Source of the DNA: an uncultured delta proteobacterium
GTDB lineage: Bacteria > Desulfobacterota > DSM-4660 > Desulfatiglandales > HGW-15
Assembly (NCBI GenBank): GCA_963815145.1
Contig: CAWFFS010000027.1
Span: 52,737 to 116,736, forward strand
Reading direction: 5' to 3'
DNA length: 64,000 nucleotides
Shown here: positions 13,787-31,672 of the stretch, piece after piece
How positions within the stretch are numbered: the stretch's first letter is position 1
Layout: each line of letters opens with the position of its first letter
The notes under the pieces: model-generated
The model's database searches: none
Seen by the model: the letters and a program-made list of their open reading frames with translations, nothing else
What the model was told of the DNA's origin: nothing
Made by a program: the position numbers and the translations under genes

Positions 13787-14572
13787 TTAAACAGCCTTAA
13801 CGCCCCTGCATCCGGGAAACCGTTTACATCCCCAAAATTCTTTTCCTGCATCAGGGCCTTTTTTAACCTCCCGCAGGGCCATTACTCCGCCGCATTTTGG
13901 GCAACTTGGGGTTCTATTGTTTTGTTTTTCCTTTATGATTTCCCTTACATTTTGTACATGCACCCTGCTTGTATCAAAGGATCGTGCAAGCCTGTTATTT
14001 TCAATTTTATCTATTATTTCCGCAACATCAGATTCAGACAGGACCTGCTGCATTTTGGATTTTATAAACCGGATAAATCCAGATCCATATGTAACATTCT
14101 CAGGCATCGCTGTTTTAAAGGTACTGTCACCGACAAAAGCAACAACAGCGTGTATCTGATTATCATTCAGACCAAGAATGGATTGCAATGTTTTTACATG
14201 TTTGTGATTCTGGCGAAGAGGATTCTGAAATTTATTGGCATACCTGTATATCTTCTGCGTCCATGTGTTCTGGTCTGCGCTTCCGAATATCCAGCCTTTC
14301 ATGTTCTTTGTTTCAACAACAAAGACGCCATAAACAGAAACGATTATATGATCTATCTGAGTAGTTCCATTCTCTGCCGGTAATGTCACATTATTGATTC
14401 GGTGATATATGTTTTTATCCAGCCGCAGCCAGGCAAGGAAGTTGACAATAGCTTCACCAAACCAGCCCTTGAACCATGGAGTTTTGAGAATAATAATAAT
14501 AATAATAACGAATATTGGAAGGAGATACCTAATGCTACCAATAAAATGACCGATAATTGATATAGGGTCCAT
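13787..14572 (-). CDS. NERD domain protein with topoisomerase-type C4 zinc ribbon
   Basis: KGWFGE, GTTQIDHIIVS, VETKNMKG, FQNPLRQN; CPKCGGVM..FWGCKRFPGCRG. Confidence 0.92.
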   Translation of the reverse strand: MDPISIIGHFIGSIRYLLPIFVIIIIIILKTPWFKGWFGEAIVNFLAWLRLDKNIYHRINNVTLPAENGTTQIDHIIVSVYGVFVVETKNMKGWIFGSADQNTWTQKIYRYANKFQNPLRQNHKHVKTLQSILGLNDNQIHAVVAFVGDSTFKTAMPENVTYGSGFIRFIKSKMQQVLSESDVAEIIDKIENNRLARSFDTSRVHVQNVREIIKEKQNNRTPSCPKCGGVMALREVKKGPDAGKEFWGCKRFPGCRGVKAV

Positions 14573-14733: not shown

Positions 14734-15705
14734 TCATCTCTTGAAAATCTTGTGCCGGTGTTTTTCCAGGTTAATCTGCGAAGGCCGGAATTTTTCGTCC
14801 TCAGGAGTAAAAATATTTCTATCCGTGAGTGTCAGTATGTGGCCAGGAAGATTCCGCTCCACCTGCACTCTGCCTGAAACCAGAACCTCATATTTTTTCC
14901 CAACGCTCATCAGACCCTCGTCAAAAGACCAGTGACACAGACGGCATAGTGCCATACCGTTGGAGGGCAAATCATCATGGCTCTTATTCCAGGGGACAAT
15001 ATGAGCGGCCTCAACTACCGTGTGACCTTCAGGAGTCAGCATTCTGATTCCGCAGAGGGCGCACCGGTGGTCATACAGGATCACTATAGCCCTTCTAAAA
15101 CCCTGATTTCGAACCTGTATTTCTTCCTGGTTTTCAGGAGCTTCCCATTCCGCAGGGTGTTCATTCGCATTCTTTAAGATATCCTCACTATATCTGTAAG
15201 ACTCCAGATTTACCCTCCCCTGTTTAATTATTGCGGGCTGCACCTCCGGCGAAAAATATGTCTGTATAATAACGAGTCTTAATCTCTCTCTTGCTACCGG
15301 ATCACAAATATATTGAAACAGCTCATCATCAAGCCTGGCGCCAAGATACACATCCCGAAGCCGCTTCATGGAACCGATGTTGTATTCTATATCAGAGTCA
15401 TAGCCTTCCCTGGAGATTCTGTGCCAGAAGCCGTCTGTGCGCAGTCTGGAAAAAGGGTAAGCCATGCTTGTAGGTGATCTGGAAGGCATAATCCTGGAAT
15501 AATAACCATTCCAGGTCTCTGCCAGTTCATAGGAGGGTTCAATAAAGTTTTCTGTAATCCGGCCCTGGGCGATCAGGTCCATTATAGAGAGAATAAGAAA
15601 AGGTTTGTGCGGAGCACGATAGTCAGTAAAGGACGGGTAGAGTTTACGACTCCGGTCAGTCCGTAACTTTGAGAACATTTTCATGTATTTATTAAGCATT
15701 TTCAC
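14734..15705 (-). CDS. HNH endonuclease (putative restriction enzyme, APHKP-type N-terminus)
   Basis: RAPHKPFLIL; FRRAI..YDHRCALCG, EAAHIVPW, NGMALCRLCHWSFD. Confidence 0.88.
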   Translation of the reverse strand: MKMLNKYMKMFSKLRTDRSRKLYPSFTDYRAPHKPFLILSIMDLIAQGRITENFIEPSYELAETWNGYYSRIMPSRSPTSMAYPFSRLRTDGFWHRISREGYDSDIEYNIGSMKRLRDVYLGARLDDELFQYICDPVARERLRLVIIQTYFSPEVQPAIIKQGRVNLESYRYSEDILKNANEHPAEWEAPENQEEIQVRNQGFRRAIVILYDHRCALCGIRMLTPEGHTVVEAAHIVPWNKSHDDLPSNGMALCRLCHWSFDEGLMSVGKKYEVLVSGRVQVERNLPGHILTLTDRNIFTPEDEKFRPSQINLEKHRHKIFKR

Positions 15706-15892: not shown

Positions 15893-17662
15893 TCAATTAT
15901 TAAGATAGACATCCGGCTTGTGATTTCTTCTCTGTGAGGGAAATCTACCAGTCGCTAAGTCTGGTATAAAGACAACTGGATATTCTAGACCTTTTGCCTT
16001 ATGGATTGTGTGAATACTGACCGTGTTTAATTGTGTCGGATCATCTAAGCCACCTACATCAACTTTATCACTGGCATAACCATTAAGGAAAAAAACAAAG
16101 GAATTTAATCGTTTTATATTCACCCATTCATTTACAGTTTCAAAATCCAATATCAGCTGACTAAAACGCCCAAAATCATATAATTGACCTTCATCAAAAT
16201 ATTCTTTATCTATTCCCATCGATTGAAGGACTTGATGATAAACATCTTGGGGGTAAAATCTATCCCCATTACTAATATCTCCTTTTATAATCATCAATCT
16301 TTTTTCTATCTGACCCCAAAGACCTAAGTTAATGTTATTTTTGTAATATTTCATCAAGTCATTTATTGTGCATGAAATATAGCCATCTGGTGACCATATT
16401 TGGTTATCGCAAAAAAAGTTAAATATCATTTGAAGGAATCGTATTTCAGGCCTTTCGAATAATCCAGCGGTTCCCTTTGTTGTGAAAGGAATATTTTCTT
16501 TTTGAAAAGCATTAACAAATATTTTTGCTGTTTCATTAGTTCTTACTAATATAGCGAAATCACACCAGTCTAATCCCCTATATTTTTCTTCACCTGTTTT
16601 TTCATCTCGGCTTTCTAAATATTTATAGCCTCTAAGCTCTTTAATTTTGTTTATAATAAAATTAACTTCATCGCTTCTGGTCTGAAATTCTAGCTGGTAT
16701 AGATCCCCTATTTCACCTTTTTTATACTTTCTTCCAAGTTCCATTCTTTTCTCAAGTCGATTACCCCTATTATATTGAATTAAATCTCTAGCAGCTTCAA
16801 TAATAGTATCTGTAGAGCGAAAATTTTTTAGTAAGTTTATTTCCTTTACATTCTTGTAACGAACTGAAAATGTCAGAATGTTATCTACATTTGCTCCCTG
16901 AAATTCGAAAATAGACTGATCATCGTCTCCGACAATACATAAATTGCCTTCTTCTCCAGCGATTAAATTTATCAATTTTTCTTGTATTGGGTTAATATCT
17001 TGATACTCATCAACAACAACGTATTTAATTTTATTACGTATATTCAATAATTCATGTGGTTCATTTTCCAAAGTACAAACCAATTGATCTATTATCGTAG
17101 CAAAATCAATGAATTTGTGCTCGCTCATAAGTTGATAATATTTTTTATAACACTCATAAAAAGCGGGGGAGTCATTTTTAATCAGGATCTCTGAAATTTG
17201 ATTCTGTTTTATTATATCTACTGTTTTCACAAATTTCTTGATCGGCTCAAATGGAGGTTTTCTTCCGGTTGATAATTGATTAATTCCTATATCCCATCCA
17301 TGTCTCGCTAGAAATAAAAGTTGTTTGTTTTCATCTATAATATCGTAGTTCCTAAATTCCGGTTTTATTTCTTTTAAATATTGAAAGCAAAATGAATGAA
17401 TTGTTCCGATATACATACTACCTAATTCCGGATCGTCAGGTAGTGTTTCTTCTAATTGCGCACGAATTCTAAGTTTCATTTCGTTGGCAGCTTTTTCTGT
17501 AAATGTAAAAGCAAGAATATGTTCTTTAGGAATTCCTGAGAGAACCATGTTGGCAATTCTTGCAGAAATAGTTTGTGTTTTGCCTGAGCCAGCACACGCA
17601 ATTATTTGAAGATTTCCATTTATATGATTTATAGCGTCTATTTGAGATGGTGTGTATTTCAT
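15893..17662 (-). pseudogene. UvrD/PcrA-like SF1 helicase, N-terminal part (3'-truncated)
   Basis: ACAGSGKT, TFTEKAA, TIHSF, VDEYQD, GDDDQSIF, NFRS, TIHKAKGLEY; ends before motif VI (R..YVA.TRA); start 17662 with RBS AAGGAG. Confidence 0.88.
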
Positions 17663-17737
17663 AATAAACTCCTTCGCAAGGGATGAACCAGAACATACCA
17701 AATGCTTAAATAATTTATGAGTTCGCCAAATATTAAG

Positions 17738-18181
17738 TTACGGGATTTCAACCTTTTCTTCGGTTGAATTTATCCACTTAATTAAATCAATTATTGAACT
17801 ATCGTATAATTTCTCATTTTTAAGACCACATTCCCAAATAACCGCCACTCGCCACTCTAGTTTGAGTAAACTTGCTATATTTTCTTTATCCCTTTCCATA
17901 GTGCGGCCAATTTTTTTCTTCCAAAATTCGGACCTTGTTGTGGGGAGATTGCTTTTACTACAGCCTTTATGTCCATGCCAAAAACAACCATTGATAAAAA
18001 CAACAGCTTTATATTTAGGTAAGACGATGTCAGGACGACCCGAAAGTTTTTTATCATTCTTTCTAAAGCGATATCCCTTTTTATGCAGGGAGGACCTAAC
18101 TATTTGTTCTATTTTTGTTTCGGAACAACGGACTTTTGACATTGCGTTACTTCGTTGCTCTTTTGTCATAAAGTCTGCCAT
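17738..18181 (-). CDS. vsr: Very short patch repair endonuclease
   Basis: RSNAMSKV..TKIE, GRPDIV, FINGCFWHGH, WECGL. Confidence 0.95.
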   Translation of the reverse strand: MADFMTKEQRSNAMSKVRCSETKIEQIVRSSLHKKGYRFRKNDKKLSGRPDIVLPKYKAVVFINGCFWHGHKGCSKSNLPTTRSEFWKKKIGRTMERDKENIASLLKLEWRVAVIWECGLKNEKLYDSSIIDLIKWINSTEEKVEIP

Positions 18182-18196
18182 GAAAAGGATATACCT

Positions 18197-18961
18197 CTAT
18201 GCTATAAATGCTTCACGATGCATTTGTAATGCTTGGGGATCTGGTAAAAATCGCTGAGGTAAGTTTAAAGCTACACCTTCAAAGGTTATAAAATTATTTT
18301 TTTGAAAATCAGGGATATTTCCTTTTTTTAATTCGCTAGAAACAACAAGTCTATAATCTTCATCAAAGGTTATTAAATGTCGATCGAAGGCTTTATCATG
18401 TAGGACATTCAAACAGAGTCCATTGGTTGGGTCGGCGCGACGATCTTCATTTTCACTCCATGGGATAATATGACTTGCAACAAGAATTTGGCGAATTGCA
18501 ATTCCTGTTAAAGCACATCTATTTTCATAGCTCGATAGAATAACTTTTCTGAAAAATTGTTGGAGACGTCGTGTCTTGACTGTTCTTTCGGCTTCGGAAG
18601 GACCATCCGGCACCTGATCTTCTATCCTATCCTCAGTGACTTGGGTAGTTTCATCTGACATTAACGATTCAAAAGCAGCTTCGCTTTGTTCTGCCATCTT
18701 GGACCAGTTCTCTTGAAACGCTGCCCAAACTTTTTTATCCAGATTGCTTGCACTCCTAAGTCCAACAACTCCACGCTGTTGATGATAGGGATCAATAGAT
18801 GCAATATTACTCAGCTTCATTGCAAGTGAACTTGACGATCGACCCAATTTTTCGGCAACTTTCATAACAAGTTTGTTTGTTTTATTAAATTGGCCAAAAG
18901 GTAGATTACAATAAAGATTCATTGCAATGAGTAGTTCTTGCTCTGTCCAGTTTCTTACCAT
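18197..18961 (-). CDS. HNH endonuclease (putative restriction endonuclease)
   Basis: NWTEQELLIAMNLY; QQFFRKVIL..CALTG, ASHIIPW, NGLCLNVLHDKAFD. Confidence 0.9.
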   Translation of the reverse strand: MVRNWTEQELLIAMNLYCNLPFGQFNKTNKLVMKVAEKLGRSSSSLAMKLSNIASIDPYHQQRGVVGLRSASNLDKKVWAAFQENWSKMAEQSEAAFESLMSDETTQVTEDRIEDQVPDGPSEAERTVKTRRLQQFFRKVILSSYENRCALTGIAIRQILVASHIIPWSENEDRRADPTNGLCLNVLHDKAFDRHLITFDEDYRLVVSSELKKGNIPDFQKNNFITFEGVALNLPQRFLPDPQALQMHREAFIA

Positions 18962-19218
18962 ATTCTCAATTTGGCAATATAAGGTTGTTAGTGTAAATCT
19001 TGAATTCGTTCAATTGGTGTGATAGTACTCAAAAATATGCATCGAAACAACCTAATATTTTATCGATCTCTATCCTGTTTACCATGTGATTCCTTATTTT
19101 TACTTATAATGAACGACCGCAACACAAACAAGAGACTATCAGCTATTGATTAAATCTATTTTATCGTTGCAAGTGTCAAGGTATTAGCCCCAAAGCTTCG
19201 AAATAAATACAGATATAA

Positions 19219-20790
19219 TTAGGATCTTCTTAGCCACTCAGACTCATCAATACCTACGCGAGAGATCATTGCCGCAAATTTATTCGCTATTTTTTGTGCA
19301 TACGAATCCTTTAAATCCAATACCCATTCATATTTATTATTTTGAGCGTCAATAAAAATGGAGTTATCTGCGGTTACAATCCCATTGTTAGCAGCTTTAA
19401 AGCTTATTGTTTTTAGATCTTGGCAGTTAAGTTTCTCTTTCAATTGGATATAATTTCCTTCTTTATCTTTATAAAGAAAGGAAAATTTTTTATCCTGTTT
19501 TTCCAAAGGCAGGAACATAAAGCTTCGTTTTTCTTCTGAGGCAATTCGTACACTATCACATCGTTGCTGTATGCAAAGCAAGTGCATTTCACTTTTAATC
19601 GGTCTAATTATTGAGCCTAAGGTAAGTTTAGGAGAATAACCTTCTCTGTAAAAATTACTCTTATGATGGGAAAGAATAGCAAACTCTTCATTTATATTGT
19701 TATCTGGTGAAAATATACTTTGTATATCTTTTTTTAATTTCCCTCTTTCATATTGCTCCCATTGCAAATCATTGATATCTGCTGACTTTTCTTTTAAGTT
19801 TTTACGCAAACAACTTTCAGCTCCACATTCCATCCATTCTTTAAGAAGACCCAATGTAACCGATACCTTTCTTTTTTTATTAATTTCAAGTTCAGTGGGG
19901 CTAAACGCATAGTTATCCAACCAAAGTTTGACACGATTTATATCACAATACTTTATCGTATTTTCGCATGTAAGAATTGAGCTAATAGACCCTATAATAT
20001 TTTCTAAAATTAGCTCCTCTGCATCTTCCGGTTCGGGACACATCGCTCGATGTGTTAAATATGCTAAGTCCAACTGCTTATTATATTCCTGTAGTAATTT
20101 ATTTGTGTTGTTCCTTAATATTGCTATTGAGCTAATTGCCGCATTTGAAATTAGTCCTCCTGTAAGTTTGGCGAATTCTTGAGAAATTACATCTGGCAAA
20201 TCCATGTAGTCAATATATTTTGATTTTATAGCCGGATCTACTGCGTTTTTTAAGGCAGGTTTAAAACGTATTACGACTCGATAATTCTCGTTTTGGACCC
20301 AAAGGTCTTCTTTATCGCTTTCAAAAACATTGTTGAACAATTTTAATATTTCACTAAAAATTGGCTCAGCCTCACGCTCACCTGTATATACTATTATCAA
20401 TTTTGGGGCACAATCTGATTCAGCTATTATAGCTTTTAATAAATCAATTGCATGCTTTCCCCTTCCGGCAGTGTCCTCTACATCTTCTTCACCTTCTTCT
20501 TCGGTTATATCTCTTGTGCAAACAGGAGGTAAATTTATCCTCCAATCAAGAATGCAAACATCCGTAGCTTTGACCAATTTAAGAATGTTACTTTTGTCAT
20601 TGATATCCTGTATTTTAAAGATAGTGCAAGCCTTACCGCTTTCGGCAAAAGCTTTGGTTATCCTATTTGCACTTAGACTATGGTCTCTATCAACATCGTT
20701 AGAAAAATCTGGCTCATCATCTATTATGGAAATTGACTTTATATATTCATCAGCAGCTTTCACAGATTCTGAAAAGAAGGTATCAGTCAT
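19219..20790 (-). CDS. Receiver-domain protein with long C-terminal region and no recognisable HTH output
   Basis: IIDDEP acidic pocket, CILDW phosphoacceptor Asp, IVYTGE; probable start MTDTFF at 20790, just after the kinase stop. Confidence 0.82.
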   Translation of the reverse strand: MTDTFFSESVKAADEYIKSISIIDDEPDFSNDVDRDHSLSANRITKAFAESGKACTIFKIQDINDKSNILKLVKATDVCILDWRINLPPVCTRDITEEEGEEDVEDTAGRGKHAIDLLKAIIAESDCAPKLIIVYTGEREAEPIFSEILKLFNNVFESDKEDLWVQNENYRVVIRFKPALKNAVDPAIKSKYIDYMDLPDVISQEFAKLTGGLISNAAISSIAILRNNTNKLLQEYNKQLDLAYLTHRAMCPEPEDAEELILENIIGSISSILTCENTIKYCDINRVKLWLDNYAFSPTELEINKKRKVSVTLGLLKEWMECGAESCLRKNLKEKSADINDLQWEQYERGKLKKDIQSIFSPDNNINEEFAILSHHKSNFYREGYSPKLTLGSIIRPIKSEMHLLCIQQRCDSVRIASEEKRSFMFLPLEKQDKKFSFLYKDKEGNYIQLKEKLNCQDLKTISFKAANNGIVTADNSIFIDAQNNKYEWVLDLKDSYAQKIANKFAAMISRVGIDESEWLRRS

Positions 20791-20797
20791 GATTGAC

Positions 20798-23779
20798 TCA
20801 CTTTTGTTCCTTTTTGAATATTTTGAATGTGACTGAACTATTTTTTCTGGGTATATCCGCAATAATTTCATAACCCACGCTACGAAGGACCTCCCTAGAG
20901 ATAGCCAAACCCATCCCTCTGCCATTTTCTTTTCTTGAAAAACCGAGCTCAAAGATCTTATCATAATCACCTTCATTAATGCTTGTCCCATTATTTGAAA
21001 TATAGAAAGATCCTTCACTATCAGCATGTAATCGTATGATCTTTTCTTCCTGATCTTGTTTTTGTTTTAACCAATGAATTGCATTATCAACAACATTCAC
21101 AAACACAGGATAGAATACCGAACGATACCCCTCTATTTTACTTGCTGCAAAATATTTTGATCGTTTAAGGATAACGCTATGCCTTTCAAATCTTCCGCGG
21201 AAAACATCCAACAAAAATATGTATATGTCTTCAGCGCTAATTTTTTCTGTTTTTCGATATAAACGCCGGTTGAAGGGAGTCAATAGAGATAAATAACCAT
21301 CTAAATGTTCAAAATTTGTACGGATATTTCCATAAATAGTTTCAAGCGTATCATCCACATCTGCCCATCGTTTAAGGTCCCTTATACTATTTCTTAAAGA
21401 TTTTACAGTACTATTGAATTCATGGTGAACTATATTAACAGCCAACCCTAATTGAGTTAGTTCAACATCACTTATTAGTTTTTCCTGTAACTCTTCAATT
21501 TCTTCTTCCATGGATGCTTCAATTTGTTTGTTTGTGACTATTCTTCCTGATTTGTCTTTCTCCCAATAAATAGAGTCAATTTGCTCAATTATATTTTCAA
21601 GAACTCCATTCGCATATTCTGTTTCTTCTATGATAGGAAGTTCGCGTTTTTTTAATTCTTCATAAATATCCGCATCCCCTTCATCGTCTATCTTTAATGT
21701 ACTGAGGTTAATCTGAACACTTCTAATGGTTTGCTCCAGGTTTGCCATTAATTCTTGAGTTAATTTTCGGACTTTGGCCGACATATCTTCACTTAATGAC
21801 CTTGCTTCTTCCCTTTTTTTCTTTGTAATATCTTTTGCTTCCATTGAGAGTTGTTCTAATGCTTTTTCAATTCTTTTCCTTTTACTTATTTGAAGTTTTA
21901 AATCTCTGCGGCATTCTTCCGTAAGATAGGATAGCTCTCTTTCACATTTGGAAAAAACCTCATCTTCAAATATAATATATCTGTCACGATATGCTTCATA
22001 GTCTCTTCGCGTCTCTTTGGATGGTGCAAAACCTCGAGGAGCGTTAATTTTATAATCCTTGCGTAACTGATTAAGCATTGTTCGTGCTTCAATTTCATAA
22101 TTAATAAGTGTTTGGGCTGCCATATCTGGGTCTTCGATTGATGCAATCGATAACAATTTATTTTCAAAGGATTGTAATAATTCGTTTGCTTGCCTATTTA
22201 TCTCTCCTGATTGTGCATTATTGAAAAAATCATTTAACTCTTTTTCAAATATTTTCTTGCGTTCTTTTGCACGCTTTTCTCTTTCTTCTTTTACCTTGAA
22301 ATAATTTTCTCTTTCACTTCTTTTACTTAACCACAATTCAGTATACTCACCAGTACCCTGTTCTCGAAAGAAATCGTTAGCAAGCTGATAAAAGAAGTTT
22401 TTTAGAATATCTCGGATCTGTTTATAAGCCTTATTTTCTATAAATCCTTCTCTCCCGGCTTTCTCTACTAAGTTGGGGTTGTTTTCTTTTGAGATATTAA
22501 TAACTCCGAACATTCTACGGTAGGAAAAGAAATAATATGATGCACTTTTTGTTCGGTTTCTCTCAATATCTATAAAGTCATAATCGGTGTCACCATATGG
22601 CAAAATTCTTATATTGTTCTTATACATATATAGTCCCCCGAACCTATTTAATTTGGACATAAGACGATTCCAAGTAACAGGATCAAGGTATGACTGTTGT
22701 TGGCGTCCTGGGACATAAGAGAAATTAATAGAGAAAGGACCACAATGTGTAAGATTGAAATTATTTTCTGACCAGGGGATTTTGTGTTTAATTCCTTTTT
22801 CATTATAGATTGATACGACTCCATCGAATTGCCCATATGGATCAAAAATGCCGGAAATATGATGATCGGCCTTTAAGAATTCGTCTGGCGTAAAGAAGCT
22901 TTCCTTATCAATTAAATCTTCATATGTATCATTTTCAGTTCGAAAATCTCTGAAAGAGGCTTCAATATTTGGCTTAGGATGGTCAGGTGTCATCGTATTG
23001 GTAAATCCGGATAAGAGTTTTTCCAACTTGGAAGCGGTCTGCGGGCTTCCGTCAATATCAGAGTTTAGTGACTCATCTACCGGAGATATGTAAAATTGTG
23101 TGCCGGAATTATGAAATAATGAAAGGTTTCCGGGCAATTTATTGTTGAGATCCTTTGGATTTACATAAAAACTATTTATCTCTTTAATAAGATTTTTAGA
23201 TTCATTATCAAATAATAATTTTTTTTTATATAATGTATCTATTGATCTAATTAATTCATTTTTCATTGATGACACTACGGACTCGTCGGGAATTTCGCTA
23301 TTCTGGAATTCTCTAACCGGAATAACAATATCATCCAAATCCAAGCCTGGGATCTCAAAGATTCCCCAATTAATAAAAGCCGCGACAATGTCTGTTAACT
23401 TATCATCTCTTATAGCCCTGGAAAGAATCAATACTTGCCTGCCTATGGCTGATATGGCTAAACGGCCAATACCTTTTTCTCCCATTATAGGACGTTTAGG
23501 TTTATTCGTTGGAGTTGGTGGTGGGAGAATGCGTTTGTTATCGAACTTACTTTCAGTGCCTAGGACCAACCATCGTTTTTCAAAATCAACTTTTGTCATT
23601 CCCAGTCCATCATCACGCAAAATAAATAACTTTTTAATTCGGAAATAATCGACATCAACATGATCTGCATATGCATCATGTGCATTTTTAAACAATTCAT
23701 TTATCGCCGTGGGGATACCAGCTATCTGCTGTCGTCCCAATAAGTCGATGGCCCTAGCTCTTGTTTTAAATTTAGCCAT
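20798..23779 (-). CDS. MutL/MORC-type GHKL ATPase - coiled coil - histidine kinase fusion
   Basis: N-term ELFKNAHDA, DDGLGM, GEKGIGR; coiled-coil middle; C-term H-box VHHEF, NVVDNA, NNG, IFELGF..GRGMGL. Confidence 0.88.
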   Translation of the reverse strand: MAKFKTRARAIDLLGRQQIAGIPTAINELFKNAHDAYADHVDVDYFRIKKLFILRDDGLGMTKVDFEKRWLVLGTESKFDNKRILPPPTPTNKPKRPIMGEKGIGRLAISAIGRQVLILSRAIRDDKLTDIVAAFINWGIFEIPGLDLDDIVIPVREFQNSEIPDESVVSSMKNELIRSIDTLYKKKLLFDNESKNLIKEINSFYVNPKDLNNKLPGNLSLFHNSGTQFYISPVDESLNSDIDGSPQTASKLEKLLSGFTNTMTPDHPKPNIEASFRDFRTENDTYEDLIDKESFFTPDEFLKADHHISGIFDPYGQFDGVVSIYNEKGIKHKIPWSENNFNLTHCGPFSINFSYVPGRQQQSYLDPVTWNRLMSKLNRFGGLYMYKNNIRILPYGDTDYDFIDIERNRTKSASYYFFSYRRMFGVINISKENNPNLVEKAGREGFIENKAYKQIRDILKNFFYQLANDFFREQGTGEYTELWLSKRSERENYFKVKEEREKRAKERKKIFEKELNDFFNNAQSGEINRQANELLQSFENKLLSIASIEDPDMAAQTLINYEIEARTMLNQLRKDYKINAPRGFAPSKETRRDYEAYRDRYIIFEDEVFSKCERELSYLTEECRRDLKLQISKRKRIEKALEQLSMEAKDITKKKREEARSLSEDMSAKVRKLTQELMANLEQTIRSVQINLSTLKIDDEGDADIYEELKKRELPIIEETEYANGVLENIIEQIDSIYWEKDKSGRIVTNKQIEASMEEEIEELQEKLISDVELTQLGLAVNIVHHEFNSTVKSLRNSIRDLKRWADVDDTLETIYGNIRTNFEHLDGYLSLLTPFNRRLYRKTEKISAEDIYIFLLDVFRGRFERHSVILKRSKYFAASKIEGYRSVFYPVFVNVVDNAIHWLKQKQDQEEKIIRLHADSEGSFYISNNGTSINEGDYDKIFELGFSRKENGRGMGLAISREVLRSVGYEIIADIPRKNSSVTFKIFKKEQK

Positions 23780-24875
23780 TTATTTCCTTTATATGGTTGG
23801 CAAAATGCCTTCCCATTGCATAGGCAAGGTCAACAGGTACAGCATTTCCTATCTGTTTAGCCATTGAATTTAGACTGCCAGTGAATTCAAAATTATCATC
23901 AAATCCTTGAAGGCGCGCTGCTTCTCTAATACTTAATGCCCTATGTTGTTCCGGATGTCCGAATCTTCCGTTGGAATAGCTGATACAACGAGTTGTTAAT
24001 CCTGTTGCAGGTTTATCCCACCACAAACGACCATAACAATCGGTATGTCCGGAATGTTTTTTGCCTCTTTCATTAGTACGCGTATAACACTCAGGTAAAA
24101 GTTCTTCCGGCCAGTTATTACGCCCACCTCCATCGGGTTTGGAGGCTTTTATGCGCTTCATATTTAGTTCTGATAATTCGGCTGCCCGATGATTAAGTAC
24201 ATCTGGATCATTGTATGTTTCTCCAGCGGCAATAGCTGGGAGATCCTCAATTGCATCTTTAACAGTTTTGTATGGATTGTCACGATTATTGCCATGGGTT
24301 GGTTCAGGAATGCTTATGGGACCATGTTTACTTGCAACCAAAACAAAACGACGACGTAATTGTGGTGCTCCGTAATCTTGAGCCGCTATAACTCCAAAAT
24401 CCATCTTGTAAGCTAACTCATGCAACAATTTTTCAAAGGCCGGAAATGGACCTTTTTTTTTCTTTTGAACTTTCTGTAATCCTGGAACATTTTCAACAAA
24501 TACAAAGTCTGGCTTATGCTTTTCTATTATTGATCCAAAATGTGTTAATAAATTCCTGCGTACATCATATTTTCGACTTTCTGTATATTGTTTAGTAAAT
24601 GGCTGACAAGGCGCGCATCCACAAAATAGAGTATAGCTATCTTTATGCTTATCAAGAGTTGGTTGTAAATCATCTGCTGAGAGTAAAGAGATGCTTTTCT
24701 CACAAAAATGTGTGTCAGGAAAATTTTTTATAAAAGTACTTTTTGCATCAGGATCTATATCCAATGCAAAAACAATATCCATACCGGCTTTTTGAAAACC
24801 CCGGCTGGTCCCCCCACATCCGCAAAAGAAATCATATACAGCTATGCGGTTGCGATTATTGTCTTTTTTCATCAT
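23772..24875 (-). CDS. dcm: DNA (cytosine-5) methyltransferase
   Basis: Motifs I FFCGCGG, IV PCQPF, VI ENV, VIII QLRRR, IX REAARLQGF, X QIGNAV. Confidence 0.93.
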   Translation of the reverse strand: MMKKDNNRNRIAVYDFFCGCGGTSRGFQKAGMDIVFALDIDPDAKSTFIKNFPDTHFCEKSISLLSADDLQPTLDKHKDSYTLFCGCAPCQPFTKQYTESRKYDVRRNLLTHFGSIIEKHKPDFVFVENVPGLQKVQKKKKGPFPAFEKLLHELAYKMDFGVIAAQDYGAPQLRRRFVLVASKHGPISIPEPTHGNNRDNPYKTVKDAIEDLPAIAAGETYNDPDVLNHRAAELSELNMKRIKASKPDGGGRNNWPEELLPECYTRTNERGKKHSGHTDCYGRLWWDKPATGLTTRCISYSNGRFGHPEQHRALSIREAARLQGFDDNFEFTGSLNSMAKQIGNAVPVDLAYAMGRHFANHIKEING

Positions 24876-25082: not shown

Positions 25083-25490
25083 TTATTTTGAGCAAATTAA
25101 ATGGAAATCGCAGCTATCACAATTTTTTCCAGGCTTCTTACCAAATCTTCTACTCTTAATACCTTTGACAGCTTTATTAATATCTTTTCTGGCATTAACA
25201 AGATTTTCCTCTGAAACATCCACATCAAACCTTACATTATCAGATAAATAATGGATATGAGATGATATAGGATTTAAACCCAATGATTTACCTGCTGCCA
25301 GGGCATAAAGCCTAAGTTGTAATCTATTTAAAGGATCTCTCTCCCTGCGCCCCTCTTTCTTCTCGGTTTTAAAATCAATTAAGTCTACATCCAATATTTT
25401 ATTCGACTCAGGGTCTGTTTTCACAATCAAATCAATCTGTCCGGATATCAAAGCATCATCCAAAATAAATTCAAATGGTTTTTCTGGAAT
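25083..25490 (-). pseudogene. C-terminal PD-(D/E)XK nuclease fragment typical of UvrD-nuclease fusions
   Basis: EKPFEF..ISGQIDLI..LIDFKT..QLRLYA..CDSCDFHLIC; no start or RBS; begins abruptly at about 25490. Confidence 0.8.
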
Positions 25491-26143: not shown

Positions 26144-27746
26144 CCCAAAATCCGAGATTGAAATAGAACAAGTCTCTAGAATATATAATTCAAGCCAAAA
26201 AAAAGGGTAGAGAGGGTCTGCGCTACATCTTTTTTTGCCGGGAGCTGGTGCTGATTCACCATCATAACTGAGACAAAGGCAATCTACCTTTGCTTCAGAC
26301 ACACCTCACCCTTTAAGTTATTATTCTCCAAGGATATCCGTTCTACCTTCTAGGTGTTTGCAAACTCCCATATCCTTAGACGAATATCGTCAAACAATGA
26401 AAAGAAGCTTCTACTCACTTTGAGATAAATCTGGCCACCATGAAATACTATCTTTCCGGCTATCTGGTACAATCTCCATCTGACCGTTTGAACCTGATAA
26501 TGGTGCCAGCTTTTACCAAGTGCCTTAAGGATAAAAAGCCGGTATGCATTATATGCCAGAGCGCCTATTCTGAAATATACAGCATTGGCTTCCGTCTGAC
26601 CACAAGGCATTCTTTCCATACCAAACCCTATCTTGAGATCCTTTATTCGGTTTTCGCTACAATCGCCACGCTGATTGTACCACCACACTACCCTTTCCGC
26701 TTGTTCAAACTTATTAGTTACTATTACAGTATACTTTACCTTCTCACCTTCTTCTTCAAACATATTCTGCTGATAGGGCCTGCGGATCACTATAAGGCGG
26801 AAACTGTTCTCAGTCTTATTCATAGTGTGAATAGCTTCAGCTATATATCCTCCTTTATAGGTGCGCCAATCCTCTTCCGGGATATTATTTATCACCTTTA
26901 ATACTGCTGCGTCTAAATCACCGCCTATAGCAAATTCAATCCCTTCTTTTTCACAGTAATTTATTATATCAGCCTGATACCCAGCGCTGTCAGACCTGAA
27001 TGCTTTAACTTCTTTACCCTTCGGAAGTTGACGACGACAGTATTTAATAAACTCAAGGTTTCTCCCTCCAGGGGATTCATTGCCCTCCCTGAAATCATCT
27101 CCCAATACCAATCCATTTTCTGCTATATGACCAACCATCGGCATATAACCCTTAAATCCCTTATAGGTCATTTTTGCCGATTCCTTCTCCGCTACTATCC
27201 CTGTTGCATCTATATCAAGAGTATACCCCTTGAGACCATCATACTTCATGCCTCGCTTTAATAGTTGCCTGTTAACTTTGCCAAGCCCTTCAAGACCACC
27301 ATTCTGTCCTGTCCTACGTAACCAATCTCCTATAGCATCTGATGAAGGAACTCGGTCTAATGGTAATATCTCTCGCATCCCTTCATCCCCTCTTATCTCT
27401 CGAGTGTCCTCCAGGTTTCTTCCTCCACCATTTAATGTCAATAGAATGGGGAACACATATTCTGAGGCTTTATACCCAGCGCCACTGCCAGGCTTTGGTA
27501 AGTATTTATCTACTGTCTTTAATATGCCCAAGCCCACCGCAAATTCTCCAAACAGACTCAGGCCTGCATGAGAAGTTATCATATCTTTGGTCATTTCTAG
27601 CTTGAATGGGAGAAGACTTTGTCGTATCATCTTTTTCACCTCGTTGGTTCAGTTTGTGTTTCTTTGTCGTTACACATATCTACCTGATTCAACGAGGTTT
27701 TTCAATTTATAACTCCATTTTTATCTCTTCAATCGCGGGTTTTGGG
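26144..27746 (-). mobile_element. IS1380-family insertion sequence
   Basis: Terminal IRs CCCAAAATCCGAGATTGAA / CCCAAAACCCGCGATTGAA around a single transposase; no exact target duplication (CTAA vs ATAA). Confidence 0.88.
26350..27639 (-). CDS. IS1380-family DDE transposase
   Basis: TSHAGL, TLDIDAT, YKGFKGYMP, FRSDSAGY, YNQRGDCSENRIKDLK. Confidence 0.93.
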   Translation of the reverse strand: MKKMIRQSLLPFKLEMTKDMITSHAGLSLFGEFAVGLGILKTVDKYLPKPGSGAGYKASEYVFPILLTLNGGGRNLEDTREIRGDEGMREILPLDRVPSSDAIGDWLRRTGQNGGLEGLGKVNRQLLKRGMKYDGLKGYTLDIDATGIVAEKESAKMTYKGFKGYMPMVGHIAENGLVLGDDFREGNESPGGRNLEFIKYCRRQLPKGKEVKAFRSDSAGYQADIINYCEKEGIEFAIGGDLDAAVLKVINNIPEEDWRTYKGGYIAEAIHTMNKTENSFRLIVIRRPYQQNMFEEEGEKVKYTVIVTNKFEQAERVVWWYNQRGDCSENRIKDLKIGFGMERMPCGQTEANAVYFRIGALAYNAYRLFILKALGKSWHHYQVQTVRWRLYQIAGKIVFHGGQIYLKVSRSFFSLFDDIRLRIWEFANT

Positions 27747-29020: not shown

Positions 29021-31672
29021 ATGTTAACTCTAAGAGACAGACTTTCACATCTTACTTATACCGGAGCGTGTAAACTTTTAGGACCGGAAGGGAAAAAACT
29101 GATACTTCTGGGTGGAAAATACGAAATAAGCATCGACGAACAAGTAATCCTGAACAACACTTCTTTTAAGCTTGATCTGGGCGAGACACTTGTTTCAATC
29201 AGCCTTGATCCGATGAATAACAAACATTTGAAGTTTGAATGCAGTACCTGTGATAATAGGTGTGAACATCTCGGTGCCGCATTTTCCCTTATTCTCGAAG
29301 AGAAATTGGCCCTCGGACTTTCCGCGCCTCCCCTGGAAAAAATCCCAATAGAGAGTCTGACCGATGAAGAGCTTATAAATCAGGAACTTGCAGACCGGAT
29401 AGAACGGGCTGAAAATCAAAAAATGAGGATCCAGGCAAATGATAAATCCATATTGTGGACAGATTATTTAATAACAAATCACACATCAGGAAAAACCTAC
29501 AGGGTTGCCTTACGAGGTTGGGAAAGGGGAGAATCCTATTGCACATGCCCTGATTTCAGGAAGAACACACTTGGGACCTGCAAACATATCCTCCATATCA
29601 TTAACAAGGTTAAAAACAGGTTCCCTAAAAAAATAAAAGATACGCCATACAGGATCAAGGATCTGGCAGTATACCTGCATTATGGTGTCAACCTGGAGCT
29701 AAGGCTTCTGATACCGAAAGATCTTGATAAGCATACATTGACTATCATCACACCTTTTATAAACAGACAAATAGAGGATGTTGAAGGGCTTGTAAAAACC
29801 ATCCGCAACCTTGAGTTGTCCGGGACAGATGTAATCATTTATCCTGATGCCGAAGAATATATAAACGACTTTCTTTACAGGAAGCGTGTCAGCAATAAAG
29901 TGAGTGAGATTCGTGCAAATCCCTTAAAACATCCTCTTAGGAAAAGCCTGCTGAAAACCGAACTGCTCCCATACCAGTTGGACGGTATTGCCTTTGCGGT
30001 AGGTCGTGGGAGAGCGGTAATAGCGGATGACATGGGGCTTGGTAAGACGATACAGGGGATCGGCGTTTCGGAATTACTTGCTCAGGATGCCGATATCTCA
30101 AAGGTGCTCATAATCTGTCCCGCGTCACTCAAAAGCCAATGGAGGATAGAGATAGAACGCTTTACCGGCCGTAACTGCCAGCTCATTTTAGGAAGTTTAA
30201 AAGAAAGGGGTGCCCAGTATAATAATGAATGTTTTTTCACAATCTGTAATTATGAACAGGTTTTAAGAGATATCAACACCATTGAGAAGGTAAAATGGGA
30301 TCTTATCATCCTGGATGAAGGACAGAGAATAAAGAACTGGGAAACAAAAACCAGCCAGACAATTAAGGCGTTGAAATCCCGTTTTGCGCTCGTCCTTACA
30401 GGAACACCGCTTGAGAATCGCCTTGACGAACTTCATTCTATTATTGAATTTATTGATGACAGGAGGCTTGGACCGGCCTTCAGGTTTTATAACCAGCACA
30501 GGATAACCAATGAAAAGGGTAAGCTGCTGGGGTACAAGAACCTTGATCTCTTACGTGAAAAACTTAAACCCATTCTCATCCGCCGCACCAGAAAAAAGGT
30601 TTTAAGGGAATTACCTCCAAGGACAACAGAAATAAGACGCATAACACCTACTGAAGAACAGTTAACTGTTCACAACCAGAATAAAAAGATAGTCAGTCAG
30701 ATCCTTAATAAAAAATATATATCGGAAATGGATCTTTTACGGCTGCAAAAGGCATTGCTGATATGCCGGATGTCTGCAAACAGCACCTTCCTTGTTGATA
30801 AGCAGCCGCCCGGTTATTCCAGCAAGCTGAAAGAGATCGATTCGCTTCTGGATCAATTGATGTCTGAGGATGACAGAAAGGTTGTGTTATTCAGCGAATG
30901 GACAACCATGTTAAACCTGATAGAGCCAATACTTGAAAAGAAGAATATCAGGTATGTAAGGCTGGACGGTTCTGTGCCGCAAAAAAAGAGACTCGGTCTG
31001 GTAAGCATATTTCAAAAAGAACCTGATTGCAGGTTCTTTATCACGACAAACGCAGGATCAACCGGGCTCAATCTTCAGGCTGCCAACACTGTTATCAATG
31101 TTGACCTTCCATGGAATCCGGCGATACTTGAACAAAGGATCGGTCGTGCTCACAGGATGGGACAAAAAAGACCTGTGCATATATTCCTTTTAGTGACAGA
31201 GGATACCCTTGAAGAAAATCTGCTGGGTACACTGTCTGCAAAGCAGGCATTGTTTACTGCTGCCCTTGATCCATCATCCGATACCGACTCCCTTGACCTG
31301 TCTGCTGGTATTGATGAACTCAGAAGGCGACTGGAAGTTTTAACCGGTGAAAAACCGGAAGCTCCGATAGATATAACCATGAAGGAGCAGCGTGAAAAAG
31401 AGGCAGAGACACTTACTAAAAAAGAGAAAATCGCAGACGCCGGCGGTCAGCTTATTGGTGCCGCCTTTAATTTTTTAGGTGAATTTTTTACACGGGAGAA
31501 AGAAACAGAACAAATAGCGCAATTGACAAATGCATTTAAAGAACGACTTACTGAATGCATGGACAGGGATGAGAATGGAAAAATAACATTGAAAGTATCA
31601 TTTCCTGACGAATCGATTATTGACAACATGGCGAGGTCACTTGCCGGACTGCTGAATTATAATCAGCGGTAA
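29021..31672 (+). CDS. SNF2-family helicase with SWIM zinc fingers
   Basis: CSTC..CEH and CTCPDF..CKH; ADDMGLGKT, DEGQRIKN, TGTPLEN, GLNLQ, QRIGRAHR. Confidence 0.92.
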   Translation: MLTLRDRLSHLTYTGACKLLGPEGKKLILLGGKYEISIDEQVILNNTSFKLDLGETLVSISLDPMNNKHLKFECSTCDNRCEHLGAAFSLILEEKLALGLSAPPLEKIPIESLTDEELINQELADRIERAENQKMRIQANDKSILWTDYLITNHTSGKTYRVALRGWERGESYCTCPDFRKNTLGTCKHILHIINKVKNRFPKKIKDTPYRIKDLAVYLHYGVNLELRLLIPKDLDKHTLTIITPFINRQIEDVEGLVKTIRNLELSGTDVIIYPDAEEYINDFLYRKRVSNKVSEIRANPLKHPLRKSLLKTELLPYQLDGIAFAVGRGRAVIADDMGLGKTIQGIGVSELLAQDADISKVLIICPASLKSQWRIEIERFTGRNCQLILGSLKERGAQYNNECFFTICNYEQVLRDINTIEKVKWDLIILDEGQRIKNWETKTSQTIKALKSRFALVLTGTPLENRLDELHSIIEFIDDRRLGPAFRFYNQHRITNEKGKLLGYKNLDLLREKLKPILIRRTRKKVLRELPPRTTEIRRITPTEEQLTVHNQNKKIVSQILNKKYISEMDLLRLQKALLICRMSANSTFLVDKQPPGYSSKLKEIDSLLDQLMSEDDRKVVLFSEWTTMLNLIEPILEKKNIRYVRLDGSVPQKKRLGLVSIFQKEPDCRFFITTNAGSTGLNLQAANTVINVDLPWNPAILEQRIGRAHRMGQKRPVHIFLLVTEDTLEENLLGTLSAKQALFTAALDPSSDTDSLDLSAGIDELRRRLEVLTGEKPEAPIDITMKEQREKEAETLTKKEKIADAGGQLIGAAFNFLGEFFTREKETEQIAQLTNAFKERLTECMDRDENGKITLKVSFPDESIIDNMARSLAGLLNYNQR

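Follow-up and report, generated by a model that had tools for sequence, protein, structure and literature searches.

Five intact open reading frames (ORFs), all on the minus strand, form a cluster at positions 17738-24875 of the window (the whole 64,000-nucleotide stretch of DNA that was analysed). The genes, and the domains delimited within their products, are as follows.

17738-24875, minus strand: whole five-gene cluster, 5 intact ORFs
23772..24875, minus strand: dcm, C5 DNA cytosine methyltransferase, 367 aa (PF00145)
20798..23779, minus strand: GHKL (paraMORC-like) and HEF_HK histidine kinase, 993 aa, soluble (Pfam)
23411..23710, minus strand: N-terminal GHKL ATPase module of MORC/MutL type, kinase residues 24-123 (PF13589, HATPase_c_3)
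21254..21454, minus strand: HEF_HK dimerisation and phosphotransfer (DHp) domain of the kinase, with the H-box H785-H786-E787-F788 (PF19191)
20819..21109, minus strand: HATPase_c catalytic (CA) domain at the kinase C-terminus, residues 891-987 (PF02518, E 8.7e-14)
19219..20790, minus strand: Response_reg_2 receiver protein, 523 aa, ATG taken at 20790 (PF19192)
20254..20745, minus strand: REC domain, receiver residues 16-179, with D24-D25, D82, T136 and K177 (Pfam match)
19666..20235, minus strand: helical middle domain, receiver residues 186-375 (secondary structure of the model)
19222..19632, minus strand: C-terminal output domain, receiver residues ~387-523, beta barrel and long helix (predicted MazF/CcdB-like fold)
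18197..18961, minus strand: HNH_2 nuclease, 254 aa, accessory gene (PF13391)
17738..18181, minus strand: Vsr very-short-patch repair endonuclease, 147 aa, accessory gene (PF03852)

All five ORFs lie where a preliminary description of the locus had placed them, and the tight spacing that it reported is correct: the dcm stop overlaps the kinase start by 8 nt, and the receiver ATG is 7 nt from the kinase stop. That account did not include the 257 nt that separate the receiver stop from the HNH start. The block had also been described as AT-richer than the core genes, in agreement with its GC content of 0.356 (vs. 0.462 at 32-64 kb of the window). The low-GC stretch extends beyond the cassette, from about 3 to 31.7 kb (GC 0.386), and an IS and further defence-type genes adjoin the cassette.

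The dcm product was recognized by Pfam (PF00145, E 1e-58), PADLOC (MTase_II, 4.5e-92) and NCBIfam (TIGR00675, 161 bits vs. a cut-off of 100.65), and its translation contains the PCQ and ENV motifs. The HNH and Vsr genes were correctly named from the outset. The HNH protein matches PF13391 (E 3.4e-13) and, over nearly its full length, the PADLOC HNH model PDLC04132 (8.3e-90); residues 103-212 correspond to the HNH domain seen in PDB 6yex (E 5.8e-15), and H164, N180 and H188 are retained. Vsr matches PF03852 (E 1.9e-30) and TIGR00632 (143.9 bits vs. a cut-off of 97.85). PADLOC models match dcm, HNH and Vsr; for the kinase and the receiver it has none.

Pfam resolves the kinase into HATPase_c_3, HEF_HK and HATPase_c, which bears out the earlier reading of a protein with two ATP-binding modules, an H-box and no transmembrane sensor; its Kyte-Doolittle means over 19 residues do not exceed 1.29, which gives no sign of a membrane segment. 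The N-terminal module (PF13589, E 7.5e-11) carries the GHKL motifs E28/N32/D35, DxGxG at 56-60 and GEKGIGRL at 100-107, conserved in at least 90-98% of 64 kinase homologues. It is the best-conserved part of the protein, with residues 1-60 being 72-98% identical in 7 homologues with an intact N-terminus (a range that excludes L009, whose kinase ends at a contig edge). Residues 10-122 also resemble the GHKL part of the BbrUII/HgiDII restriction enzymes (NCBIfam NF050001, E 1.8e-15), which likewise have a C5 methylase alongside. However, this match covers only the N-terminal part (108 of 659 model positions, 56.6 bits vs. a cut-off of 550) and the remainder of the protein is a kinase; the kinase is not a member of that family.

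At the other end of the kinase, HEF_HK spans residues 776-842 (97.6 bits vs. a cut-off of 24.1, E 6e-28), and H786, E787 and F788 are each at least 98% conserved among the 64 homologues. Residues 758-976 align with the DHp and CA domains of FixL (E 1.8e-5), the H-box falling on the FixL ‘HELNQP’ motif, which we take to contain the phospho-accepting histidine of FixL. The CA domain has a conserved N-box (D898, N899) and a conserved G2 box (GRGMGL from 953). Family-wide, the G1 box reads N929-N930-G931 rather than the canonical DxGxG; given the missing Asp, ATP use by this domain is not certain. The GHKL module is connected to the DHp-CA core by a middle region that is conserved and by a variable stretch (residues ~480-720). 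Overall, the kinase is 43-68% identical to the genes at the same position in related loci.

The receiver matches PF19192 (E 1.2e-20, 74.8 bits vs. a cut-off of 27), and 258 full-length homologues were found. An alignment of 42 homologues (A1) shows little or no variation at D24, D25, D82, T136 and K177, while residues 180-523 have no match in Pfam, PADLOC or NCBIfam and Pfam scans found neither a helix-turn-helix (HTH) nor another known nucleic-acid-binding output. The preliminary description, which had noted the DD/D/T residues, a long C-terminal region and no HTH, was accurate on each point. An AlphaFold2 model of the protein (pLDDT 84.7, pTM 0.80) resembles, at full length, the solved response regulators RcsB, LvrB and PorX (Foldseek E 0.003-0.01). 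The middle domain, a part that the search tool marks as barely tested, yielded generic helical fold matches only.

The C-terminal domain is predicted to have the MazF/CcdB toxin fold, a likeness at the level of fold and not of sequence. In a VIA-align comparison of model residues ~387-513 with some 48,000 solved chains, MazF, CcdB and Kid proteins took the first 11 places, and all 50 structure matches listed belong to the MazF/CcdB toxin superfamily. The best match, 8zws_A, has a Z of 8.3, a level that, according to VIA-align itself, models lacking any true match often reach (rmsd 2.8 Å, 96 of 105 residues aligned). Foldseek placed E. coli MazF first (probability 0.99 but E 0.029), its E-values for the tail being 0.03 or worse, and in a viral library a phage PemK/MazF protein matched (probability 0.91, E 0.15). 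The toxins in question, the MazF/PemK/Kid endoribonucleases and the gyrase poison CcdB, belong to type II toxin-antitoxin systems; the modelled likeness to them (Z 6.1-8.3, 86-102 aligned residues) covers most of the toxin chains. In contrast, there is no detectable sequence relation: a tail profile compared with 24 MazF sequences gave a probability of 1.1%, with the Pfam threshold relaxed to E 10, still none of 42 receivers matched PemK or CcdB, and no MazF-type catalytic residues could be matched in the tail. The tail is moreover part of a fusion, preceded by a receiver and a helical domain, whereas the toxins are paired with an antitoxin gene.

This tail is the best-conserved part of the receiver, above the REC domain. 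C406, Q408, C411, R415, R511, E518 and R521 are invariant polar residues in two alignments (A1 and A3); A3 adds D412 and R422, which in A1 are almost invariant. A tail profile search returned 1436 cluster representatives; the best 150 are mostly proteins of 480-610 aa with the tail domain C-terminal, and the shorter ones likewise end in it.

Related loci were gathered via motifs of the receiver C-terminal domain, so the counts that follow state how often a receiver is accompanied by other genes and not the reverse. Where 4.3 kb or more of upstream sequence was available, the order dcm-kinase-receiver, with similar spacing, recurs in 63 of 64 loci, from other genomes and several phyla; where the upstream sequence reached 3.1 kb or more, the kinase adjoins the receiver in 64 of 65. 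An HNH match occurs somewhere in 7 of 54 fully flanked loci; of 59 loci, only 5 have an HNH homologue in the 1.5 kb that follow the receiver. Vsr is present in 21 of the 54, on the dcm side or the receiver side of the trio, and 30 of the 54 have neither homologue. By these counts the conserved core is three genes, dcm, kinase and receiver, and HNH and Vsr are optional add-ons. The earlier expectation that all five genes co-occur elsewhere was borne out only in part, for the trio. The dcm-kinase-receiver arrangement is not due to chance, but as a set of five the genes do not recur. In seven loci (L040, L041, L045, L047, L061, L065, L076) the nearest ORFs on both sides belong to no nuclease or defence family, these neighbours being mostly housekeeping genes (glmS, purA and guaA among them). 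Trios occur with no nuclease neighbour, and no other part of the receiver is conserved as well as the tail; the receiver's own C-terminal domain is thus a more likely effector than HNH.

In the related locus L006 the dcm copy is 75% identical to that of the present locus yet its kinase only 43%, while in L004 dcm is 32% identical yet the kinase 68%. The methylase is exchanged independently of the kinase. Segment-wise comparison of homologues found no part of the kinase or receiver that varies in step with the methylase. The preliminary description proposed that the GHKL clamp would sense unmethylated DNA; such swapping beside a highly conserved kinase is hard to square with the reading of one specific unmethylated site. 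Response_reg_2 was found in 2 of 41 related genomes, the present one counted. The same genome contains a second HEF_HK kinase-partner pair, whose partner, from a divergent family, shares only the tail domain with the receiver (hhalign probability 75%, E 2.5e-5); no methylase or other restriction-modification (R-M) gene occurs near this pair (ORFs of at least 100 aa, 14 kb around).

The preliminary description had noted that MORC/MutL-type ATPases, some of them fused to histidine-kinase modules, were already known from R-M neighbourhoods. Its domain reading stands, but the layout itself, including the receiver, HNH_2 and Vsr, was already described in 2021 by Bellieny-Rabelo, Pretorius and Moleleki (PMC8011034). 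Both HEF_HK (PF19191) and Response_reg_2 (PF19192) are existing Pfam families, and the present proteins score far above both cut-offs. According to the available text of that paper, linkage is 91.6% over 644 regions, with kinase and receiver adjacent, a C5 methylase upstream and HNH_2 and Vsr nearby; both proteins are soluble, and the predominant ‘group 1’ architecture (HATPase_c_3, HEF_HK, HATPase_c) is that of the present kinase. No feature of its architecture sets the cluster apart from the module, so it is a member. The literature yielded only this comparative-genomic study and no experimental or mechanistic work on any family member, as the preliminary description had anticipated; a defence role is therefore proposed from context only.

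We hold, with moderate confidence, that this HEF_HK / Response_reg_2 module is a horizontally mobile three-gene conflict system of the defence or addiction type. We would give about an even chance to a methylation-linked form of it, in which phosphotransfer from His786 to Asp82 gates the toxin-like output domain. The methylase would mark the host's own DNA, while the N-terminal GHKL clamp of the kinase would monitor DNA, or the methylase at work on it, and convert the state sensed into autophosphorylation of His786. Transfer of the phosphoryl group to Asp82 of the receiver would release or restrain the output domain, which could arrest growth or attack nucleic acid once non-self or unprotected DNA appears. 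At the present locus, the HNH_2 nuclease may contribute DNA cleavage and Vsr may repair T:G mismatches arising from m5C deamination. Detocs is a precedent with the same logic: in the available text of Rousset et al. (preprint 10.1101/2023.01.24.525353), defence was lost when either the kinase His or the Asp of the receiver was mutated. In Detocs, as would be the case here, a cytoplasmic sensor kinase hands phosphate to a receiver in which a cell-harming effector takes the place of the usual DNA-binding output. As described in that text, however, Detocs senses via TPR repeats, whereas the present kinase has a GHKL clamp; it lacks a methylase and acts mostly through PNP ATP nucleosidases as effectors, and its third gene, the stand-alone buffer receiver DtcB, has no counterpart in the cassette.

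A different division of labour is that of a strict R-M system, in which a separate nuclease (HNH_2 here; OLD-like ATPases or NOV_C elsewhere) is the effector. We consider this unlikely, and equally doubtful its corollary that kinase and receiver only license or recruit the nuclease while the tail is a docking or adaptor domain rather than a toxin. The slot after the receiver is often filled by a nuclease-type gene: 57 first-downstream ORFs scanned comprise 12 AAA_15/AAA_21 ATPases (about 600 aa), 5 HNH_2 proteins, 3 NOV_C proteins and 1 GHKL REase-like protein. Besides its near full-length PADLOC match, the HNH protein weakly matches PADLOC PDC-S36 in its N-terminal 140 residues (3.5e-5), the family of the NOV_C proteins of the same slot (2.8e-99), which hints at a shared N-terminal domain with alternative nuclease heads; however, BLASTP and a small profile comparison did not confirm this link. 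ParaMORCs have also been proposed to act with nucleases in R-M systems (Iyer et al. 2008, PMC2292703, available text). Yet HNH and Vsr homologues are both absent from 30 of the 54 fully flanked loci, the seven lone trios have no nuclease or defence neighbour, the receiver and HNH genes are 257 nt apart here, and an adaptor role leaves the top conservation of the tail in nuclease-less loci unexplained.

The kinase and receiver features are canonical, and the authors of the family's only paper (PMC8011034) propose in its available text a regulatory two-component system. The pair would then respond to an intracellular cue (nucleotide level, DNA state) by tuning the activity or expression of neighbouring R-M genes and would itself harm neither cell nor invader. 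This we judge improbable: the receiver lacks a known nucleic-acid-binding output, the pair moves together with a methylase, in a mobile unit of patchy distribution, and not with a regulon, and no R-M gene occurs among the ORFs of at least 100 aa in the 14 kb around the second pair. Still less probable is a role in DNA repair or epigenome maintenance, with the MutL-like GHKL module and Vsr acting on methylase-made T:G mismatches and the phosphorelay reporting damage load. Both dcm and Vsr are present here, and a functional interaction of E. coli MutL and Vsr is cited in the available text of PMC2292703, but Vsr is missing from 33 of 54 loci, and a toxin-like output domain in a defence-island context is a poor fit. 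Finally, each of dcm, HNH and Vsr matches standard R-M models (PADLOC), as expected of an ordinary Type II system into which an unrelated two-component pair was inserted by chance. This is very improbable, given that dcm overlaps the kinase start and that HNH is rare while the trio's order is kept across several phyla; the synteny counts contradict it.

Compared with the MORC/paraMORC proteins of Iyer, Abhiman and Aravind (2008, PMC2292703, in its available text), the conflict system favoured here shares an intact N-terminal GHKL ATPase, lateral mobility and association with cytosine methylases, Vsr and HNH nucleases. ParaMORC1-5, as described there, combine GHKL and S5 with a C-terminal domain (nuclease, TIR or unknown) or with helicases, whereas the present kinase has a C-terminal histidine kinase core and a receiver partner; the word ‘receiver’ is absent from the available text. 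As for the module described in PMC8011034, Response_reg_2 proteins are stated there to have no other known domain. To what is found in the available text of that paper, our analysis adds a strict trio core able to stand alone, a predicted MazF/CcdB-like fold for the receiver tail, a methylase-less pair whose partner shares the tail domain, and a kinase G1 box that reads NNG.

The preliminary description had reported a head-to-tail cluster of five minus-strand genes at 17738-24875, and every detail that it gave is confirmed by ORF calls and domain matches. The genes of this cassette are:

24875-23772, minus strand: dcm, C5 methylase, 367 aa (PF00145, E 1e-58; TIGR00675 above its cut-off; PCQ and ENV motifs visible)
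23779-20798, minus strand: kinase, 993 aa (HATPase_c_3 at residues 24-123; HEF_HK at 776-842, 97.6 bits vs 24.1; HATPase_c at 891-987)
20790-19219, minus strand: receiver protein, 523 aa (Response_reg_2 at residues 16-179, 74.8 bits vs 27)
18961-18197, minus strand: HNH protein, 254 aa (HNH_2; PADLOC HNH model, 8.3e-90)
18181-17738, minus strand: Vsr, 147 aa (TIGR00632, 143.9 bits vs 97.85; PF03852, 105 bits vs 27)

As described earlier, the coding regions of dcm and the kinase overlap (by 8 nt), 7 nt lie between the kinase stop and the receiver ATG, the kinase has no membrane segment (highest hydropathy mean 1.29) and the cassette is AT-richer, with a GC content of 0.356 vs 0.462 in the right half of the window. 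The receiver and HNH genes are separated by a gap of 257 nt. An operon-boundary scan recorded promoter-like sites at chance level (41 vs 39.9 ± 6.9) and 10 terminator-like sites vs 6.1 ± 2.3, the sole minus-strand one lying outside the cassette, at ~15.8 kb. Vsr is identified by scores above both the NCBIfam and the Pfam cut-offs. The HNH_2 protein also matches the PADLOC ‘Type II restriction enzyme’ model (1.6e-35), and its HNH domain matches PDB 6yex, which we take to be a modification-dependent enzyme. The methyltransferase expected of a Type II restriction-modification (R-M) system is present, and the HNH_2 protein is a candidate for the cognate endonuclease.

The cassette belongs to a catalogued, experimentally untouched gene family, and its layout is in itself neither a discovery nor a new kind of system. 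HEF_HK (PF19191) and Response_reg_2 (PF19192) were defined from exactly such a neighborhood by Bellieny-Rabelo, Pretorius and Moleleki in 2021 (PMC8011034), whose Results and Discussion give a linkage of the two genes of 91.6% over 644 regions in 628 strains, with a C5 methylase frequently upstream of the pair, HNH_2 as the commonest nuclease domain in the vicinity and Vsr often just downstream. The C5 methylase of our cassette, which runs into the kinase start, stands directly upstream in the same way. Those sections also relate the kinase N-terminus to paraMORC ATPases (see also Iyer et al. 2008, PMC2292703), assign no other known domain to Response_reg_2 proteins, and merely suggest a regulatory link to R-M. 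Our literature search returned no experimental work on the family, and no report of His-to-Asp phosphotransfer for any HEF_HK or Response_reg_2 member. Relative to the Results and Discussion of the 2021 paper, the present analysis adds a three-gene core, a predicted toxin-like fold for the output domain of the receiver, and a second kinase-partner pair for which no methylase was seen in the vicinity. Detocs, as described in 10.1101/2023.01.24.525353, combines DtcA, a sensor kinase with TPR repeats, with the stand-alone receiver DtcB and the receiver-effector DtcC; judged by these parts the cassette is not a member, as no TPR repeats were found in the kinase (Pfam scan) and the cassette has no stand-alone receiver gene. 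PADLOC holds a model for neither the kinase nor the receiver.

By their residues, both the kinase and the receiver look functional. The kinase has the group 1 architecture of PMC8011034 (N-terminal HATPase_c_3, HEF_HK, C-terminal HATPase_c), and its HEF_HK match scores above the Pfam gathering threshold. The N-terminal GHKL module (PF13589, E 7.5e-11) retains intact ATP-binding motifs of the MORC/paraMORC type (E28, N32, D35, DxGxG at 56-60, GEKGIGRL at 100-107), which are at least 90-98% conserved across 64 homologues. The H-box (H786-E787-F788), the N-box (D898-N899) and the G2 box are likewise conserved in this set, H786-E787 at ≥98%, as are residues ~220-480. The FixL kinase core aligns with residues 758-976, placing the H-box on the FixL ‘HELNQP’ motif, presumably the site of FixL's phospho-accepting His. 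The G1 box, DxGxG in canonical kinases, is N929-N930-G931 (window 20987-20995) in at least 90-98% of the 64 homologues. The gene 7 nt from the kinase matches Response_reg_2 above the gathering score and carries the DD/D/T/K pattern; the DD/D/T residues claimed earlier are upheld by alignment A1 (42 receiver homologues), in which D24, D25, D82 and K177 are invariant and T136 nearly so.

For gene order, we assembled 74 loci with receiver relatives from a one-genome-per-species set and located relatives of the window proteins by tblastn; because receiver motifs served to find the loci, all counts are frequencies given a receiver. The kinase lies directly upstream of the receiver in 64 of the 65 loci with ≥3.1 kb upstream, and dcm then kinase precede it in 63 of the 64 loci with ≥4.3 kb upstream, the exception (L069) being a receiver fragment only. 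The accessory genes are far less constant. Among 54 loci with ≥4.3 kb upstream and ≥4 kb downstream, Vsr occurs anywhere in 21, an HNH match in 7 and neither in 30, and an HNH homologue lies within 1.5 kb past the receiver in 5 of 59 loci (full receiver, ≥1.5 kb downstream). Co-occurrence of the five genes in other genomes, which the preliminary description had made a condition of its proposal, is thus found for the dcm-kinase-receiver trio (63/64), but not for HNH (7/54) or Vsr (21/54).

Of 132 downstream ORFs, 57 were compared with Pfam, namely the first ORF of each of 57 loci (near-duplicate or truncated loci left out). The first downstream ORF is an AAA_15/AAA_21 ATPase of ~600 aa in 12 of these loci (L005, L008, L011-L013, L015, L021, L032, L033, L052, L054, L072; whole in nine, with shorter ORFs in L015, L033 and L052), HNH_2 in 5, Vsr in 4, NOV_C in 3, a second dcm in 3, and an ordinary gene (such as purA, dus, glmS, dnaX or yicC) in about a dozen. 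The ATPase gene fills the slot of the window HNH, often 20-30 nt past the receiver stop; three of the 12 ATPases (L005, L011, L021) were run against PADLOC and matched HEC-04 best and AriA, GajA and Old more weakly. With the upstream scan included (18 ORFs, 15 loci), seven loci (L040, L041, L045, L047, L061, L065, L076) have the trio flanked by genes, chiefly of housekeeping function, that show no nuclease or defence family. On these locus counts and ORF scans, the conserved and putatively self-sufficient unit is the three genes, with HNH and Vsr as accessories of the window's locus.

Some of the accessory proteins may be related to one another. Residues 4-139 of the window HNH (18545-18952) weakly match the PADLOC family PDC-S36 (E 3.5e-5), to which the NOV_C protein after the receiver in L017 (10651-11487) belongs; the NOV_C proteins of L038 and L073 are probably also PDC-S36, as they carry the same NOV_C domain. 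The HNH and NOV_C proteins could have an N-terminal domain in common and differ in the nuclease head attached to it. Neither BLASTP nor hhalign, the latter run on very small alignments, confirmed a common HNH/NOV_C N-terminus, and a comparison with the unassigned 251-aa gene of L014 likewise showed nothing.

Conservation of the receiver protein extends over its whole length in 258 homologues, and residues 180-523 have zero matches in Pfam, PADLOC and NCBIfam. An AlphaFold2 model built on the 42-sequence alignment (pLDDT 84.7, pTM 0.80) places a REC domain at residues 1-180, a helical region at 186-375 and, at 376-522, a beta domain that closes with a long helix; a separate model of residues 180-523 has a pLDDT of 83.4. 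Searched against ~48,000 solved chains with VIA-align, the C-terminal output domain (residues ~387-523) had MazF, CcdB and Kid toxins as its first 11 matches, led by 8zws_A (rmsd 2.8 Å, 96 of 105 residues aligned) with a Z of 8.3, a value near 8 being common for models without a true match according to the fold-search tool. In a second fold look, all 50 of the 50 listed entries belong to the MazF/PemK/CcdB toxin superfamily (Z 6.1-8.3). Foldseek ranks E. coli MazF first (probability 0.99, TM 0.56 on target, E 0.029), and a viral library yielded a phage PemK/MazF protein (probability 0.91, E 0.15). At the sequence level, hhalign of the output domain against 24 MazF sequences returned a probability of 1.1%, which does not indicate a profile relation; a Pfam scan of the 42 receivers at E up to 10 gave Response_reg_2 only, with neither PemK nor CcdB in any of them; the receiver alignment profile found only glomulin among PDB sequences (E 0.049, taken as chance); and the ESM Atlas gave only unnamed clusters for residues 376-523. 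A two-copy (homodimer) test of the output domain with its alignment A3 scored 0.02 vs a mark of 0.42 and counts neither way. Taken from the models, the receiver tail probably has a MazF/CcdB fold, and we infer a toxin function for it. No antitoxin-like small gene was found in the cassette, in which the output domain is fused to the receiver.

Across seven homologues compared, identity in the tail is 42-68% (windows 401-440 and 481-520) vs 12-52% across REC. An output-domain profile found 1436 cluster representatives, and the best 150 of these are mostly proteins of 480-610 aa with the output domain at the C-terminus; proteins of 129-430 aa among the same 150 also end with it and resemble contig-truncated genes, and no free-standing toxin gene with the domain was seen among the best 150 of the 1436.

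The same genome, at ~582.7-587.3 kb of the contig, encodes a second HEF_HK kinase of 794 aa (HATPase_c_3, HEF_HK, HATPase_c; locus L003, 4751-9276, plus strand) with an overlapping partner of 714 aa that has no Pfam or PADLOC match. The N-terminus of the partner's family has a DD / D / S / K pattern, and the only part that this family has in common with Response_reg_2 proteins is the output domain (hhalign probability 75%, E 2.5e-5). In the 14 kb around the pair, the scanned ORFs of ≥100 aa include no methylase. That the output domain is conserved more than any other part of the receiver, is C-terminal in the profile matches and is common to the second pair points to it as the business end of the protein. 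The second pair adjoins an integrase fragment and type III CRISPR genes (Cas10, Csm2).

By sequence identity, the methylase is exchanged independently of the kinase: the dcm of L006 is 75% identical to that of the window and its kinase only 43%, and in L004 the values are 32% for dcm and 68% for the kinase. A mosaic test, comparing 7 receiver and 8 kinase homologues of the 64 available, found no segment that tracks the methylase. Given this independent exchange and the lack of a tracking segment, the sensor may respond to a generic cue (for example the methylase, stalled complexes or DNA ends) and not to a sequence, which complicates sensing of unmethylated sites by the GHKL clamp as first proposed. 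L004, from Candidatus Electrothrix laxa, is the closest relative and has two methylase ORFs before the kinase (3386-5456). One is a dcm of 412 aa; the other, of 276 aa, corresponds to the N-terminal two-thirds of C5 methylase models. The methylase may be split or duplicated here.

The trio is, as read from its genes, a compact and mobile unit with intact ATPase, kinase and receiver residues, ending in a conserved, non-DNA-binding output domain of predicted toxin-like fold, and the earlier interpretation of a phosphorelay-containing restriction-like system is partly supported. As its most likely mode of action, at about even odds, we propose a methylation-linked conflict system. The methylase would mark self DNA, the GHKL clamp would read DNA or methylase activity, phosphate would pass from His786 to Asp82, and the phosphorylation state of the receiver would gate the output domain, which would stop growth or attack nucleic acid. 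R-M-like immunity without a restriction enzyme is a bolder reading, a possibility rather than an expectation. In it, phosphotransfer would switch on a toxin domain of MazF/CcdB fold within the receiver, and the cell would respond to unmethylated or foreign DNA by arresting growth, not by cleaving DNA; HNH_2, NOV_C and OLD-like nucleases would be bolt-on modules; and the output domain would also serve kinase pairs without a neighboring methylase. The relay logic has a precedent in Detocs, in which mutation of the kinase His or the receiver Asp is described as abolishing defence (10.1101/2023.01.24.525353).

The frequent presence of a nuclease-type gene after the receiver, along with the weak hint of an N-terminal domain common to the window HNH and the NOV_C/PDC-S36 proteins, would suit a separate nuclease as the true effector and the receiver as an adaptor; we regard this as unlikely, since the hint was not confirmed and trios without a nuclease exist. 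A receiver without a DNA-binding output argues against the purely regulatory two-component system proposed in the 2021 paper, to which we give a low probability. A MutL-like repair module working with Vsr is more doubtful still, as most loci have no Vsr, and that a two-component pair landed by chance in a Type II system is very improbable, being contradicted by the synteny.

In many genomes, prokaryotic MORC-like GHKL ATPases are encoded next to methylases; from them the eukaryotic MORC chromatin proteins presumably descend. Here the GHKL clamp is wired to a histidine kinase, so its state should be readable as phosphorylation, of His786 and then of Asp82; such a read-out would make the DNA cue of a MORC-type clamp directly measurable, and the family would be a tractable one for this. 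If the tail is a phospho-gated toxin, the trio would represent a second, independent use of two-component signaling in immunity, beside Detocs, and an R-M-like system with a non-nuclease output.

The cassette lies in a low-GC stretch (~3000-31700 of the window, GC 0.386) that includes an IS and toxin-antitoxin genes and resembles a defence island. Its other genes include:

3018-3669: HepT/MNT pair
3837-4253: PIN protein
10554-11699: DUF4143 ATPase (PADLOC PDC-S01 match)
11887-12615 and 13787-14572: two NERD proteins
14734-15705: second HNH_2 protein
15893-17701, minus strand: UvrD-type helicase, 602 aa, PADLOC GajB-like, without a nuclease domain, just downstream of vsr
25083-25463, minus strand: PD-(D/E)XK / Cas4-like nuclease, 126-aa C-terminal fragment, just upstream of dcm
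26350-27639, minus strand: DDE_Tnp_1_4 transposase, next to the Cas4-like fragment
29021-31672, plus strand: SNF2 helicase (DpdE/ZorD model matches)

Insertion of the cassette into a helicase-nuclease gene, with the UvrD helicase (15893-17701) and the Cas4-like fragment (25083-25463) as its two parts, was considered and rejected, as the strand order misfits a simple insertion; the two may be what is left of helicase-nuclease genes after rearrangement around the cassette. No flanking direct repeats were found around the cassette as insertion scars, no tRNA genes in the window, and no Rfam families in the 13-29 kb part of the window. Response_reg_2 has a patchy distribution, occurring in 2 of 41 related genomes (including this one), and the receiver matches 1 of 72,556 plasmid records and 0 of 50,697 phage records. 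In three unrelated gammaproteobacterial genomes (L041, L047, L061) the trio directly adjoins glmS, a site at which mobile elements are known to insert often.
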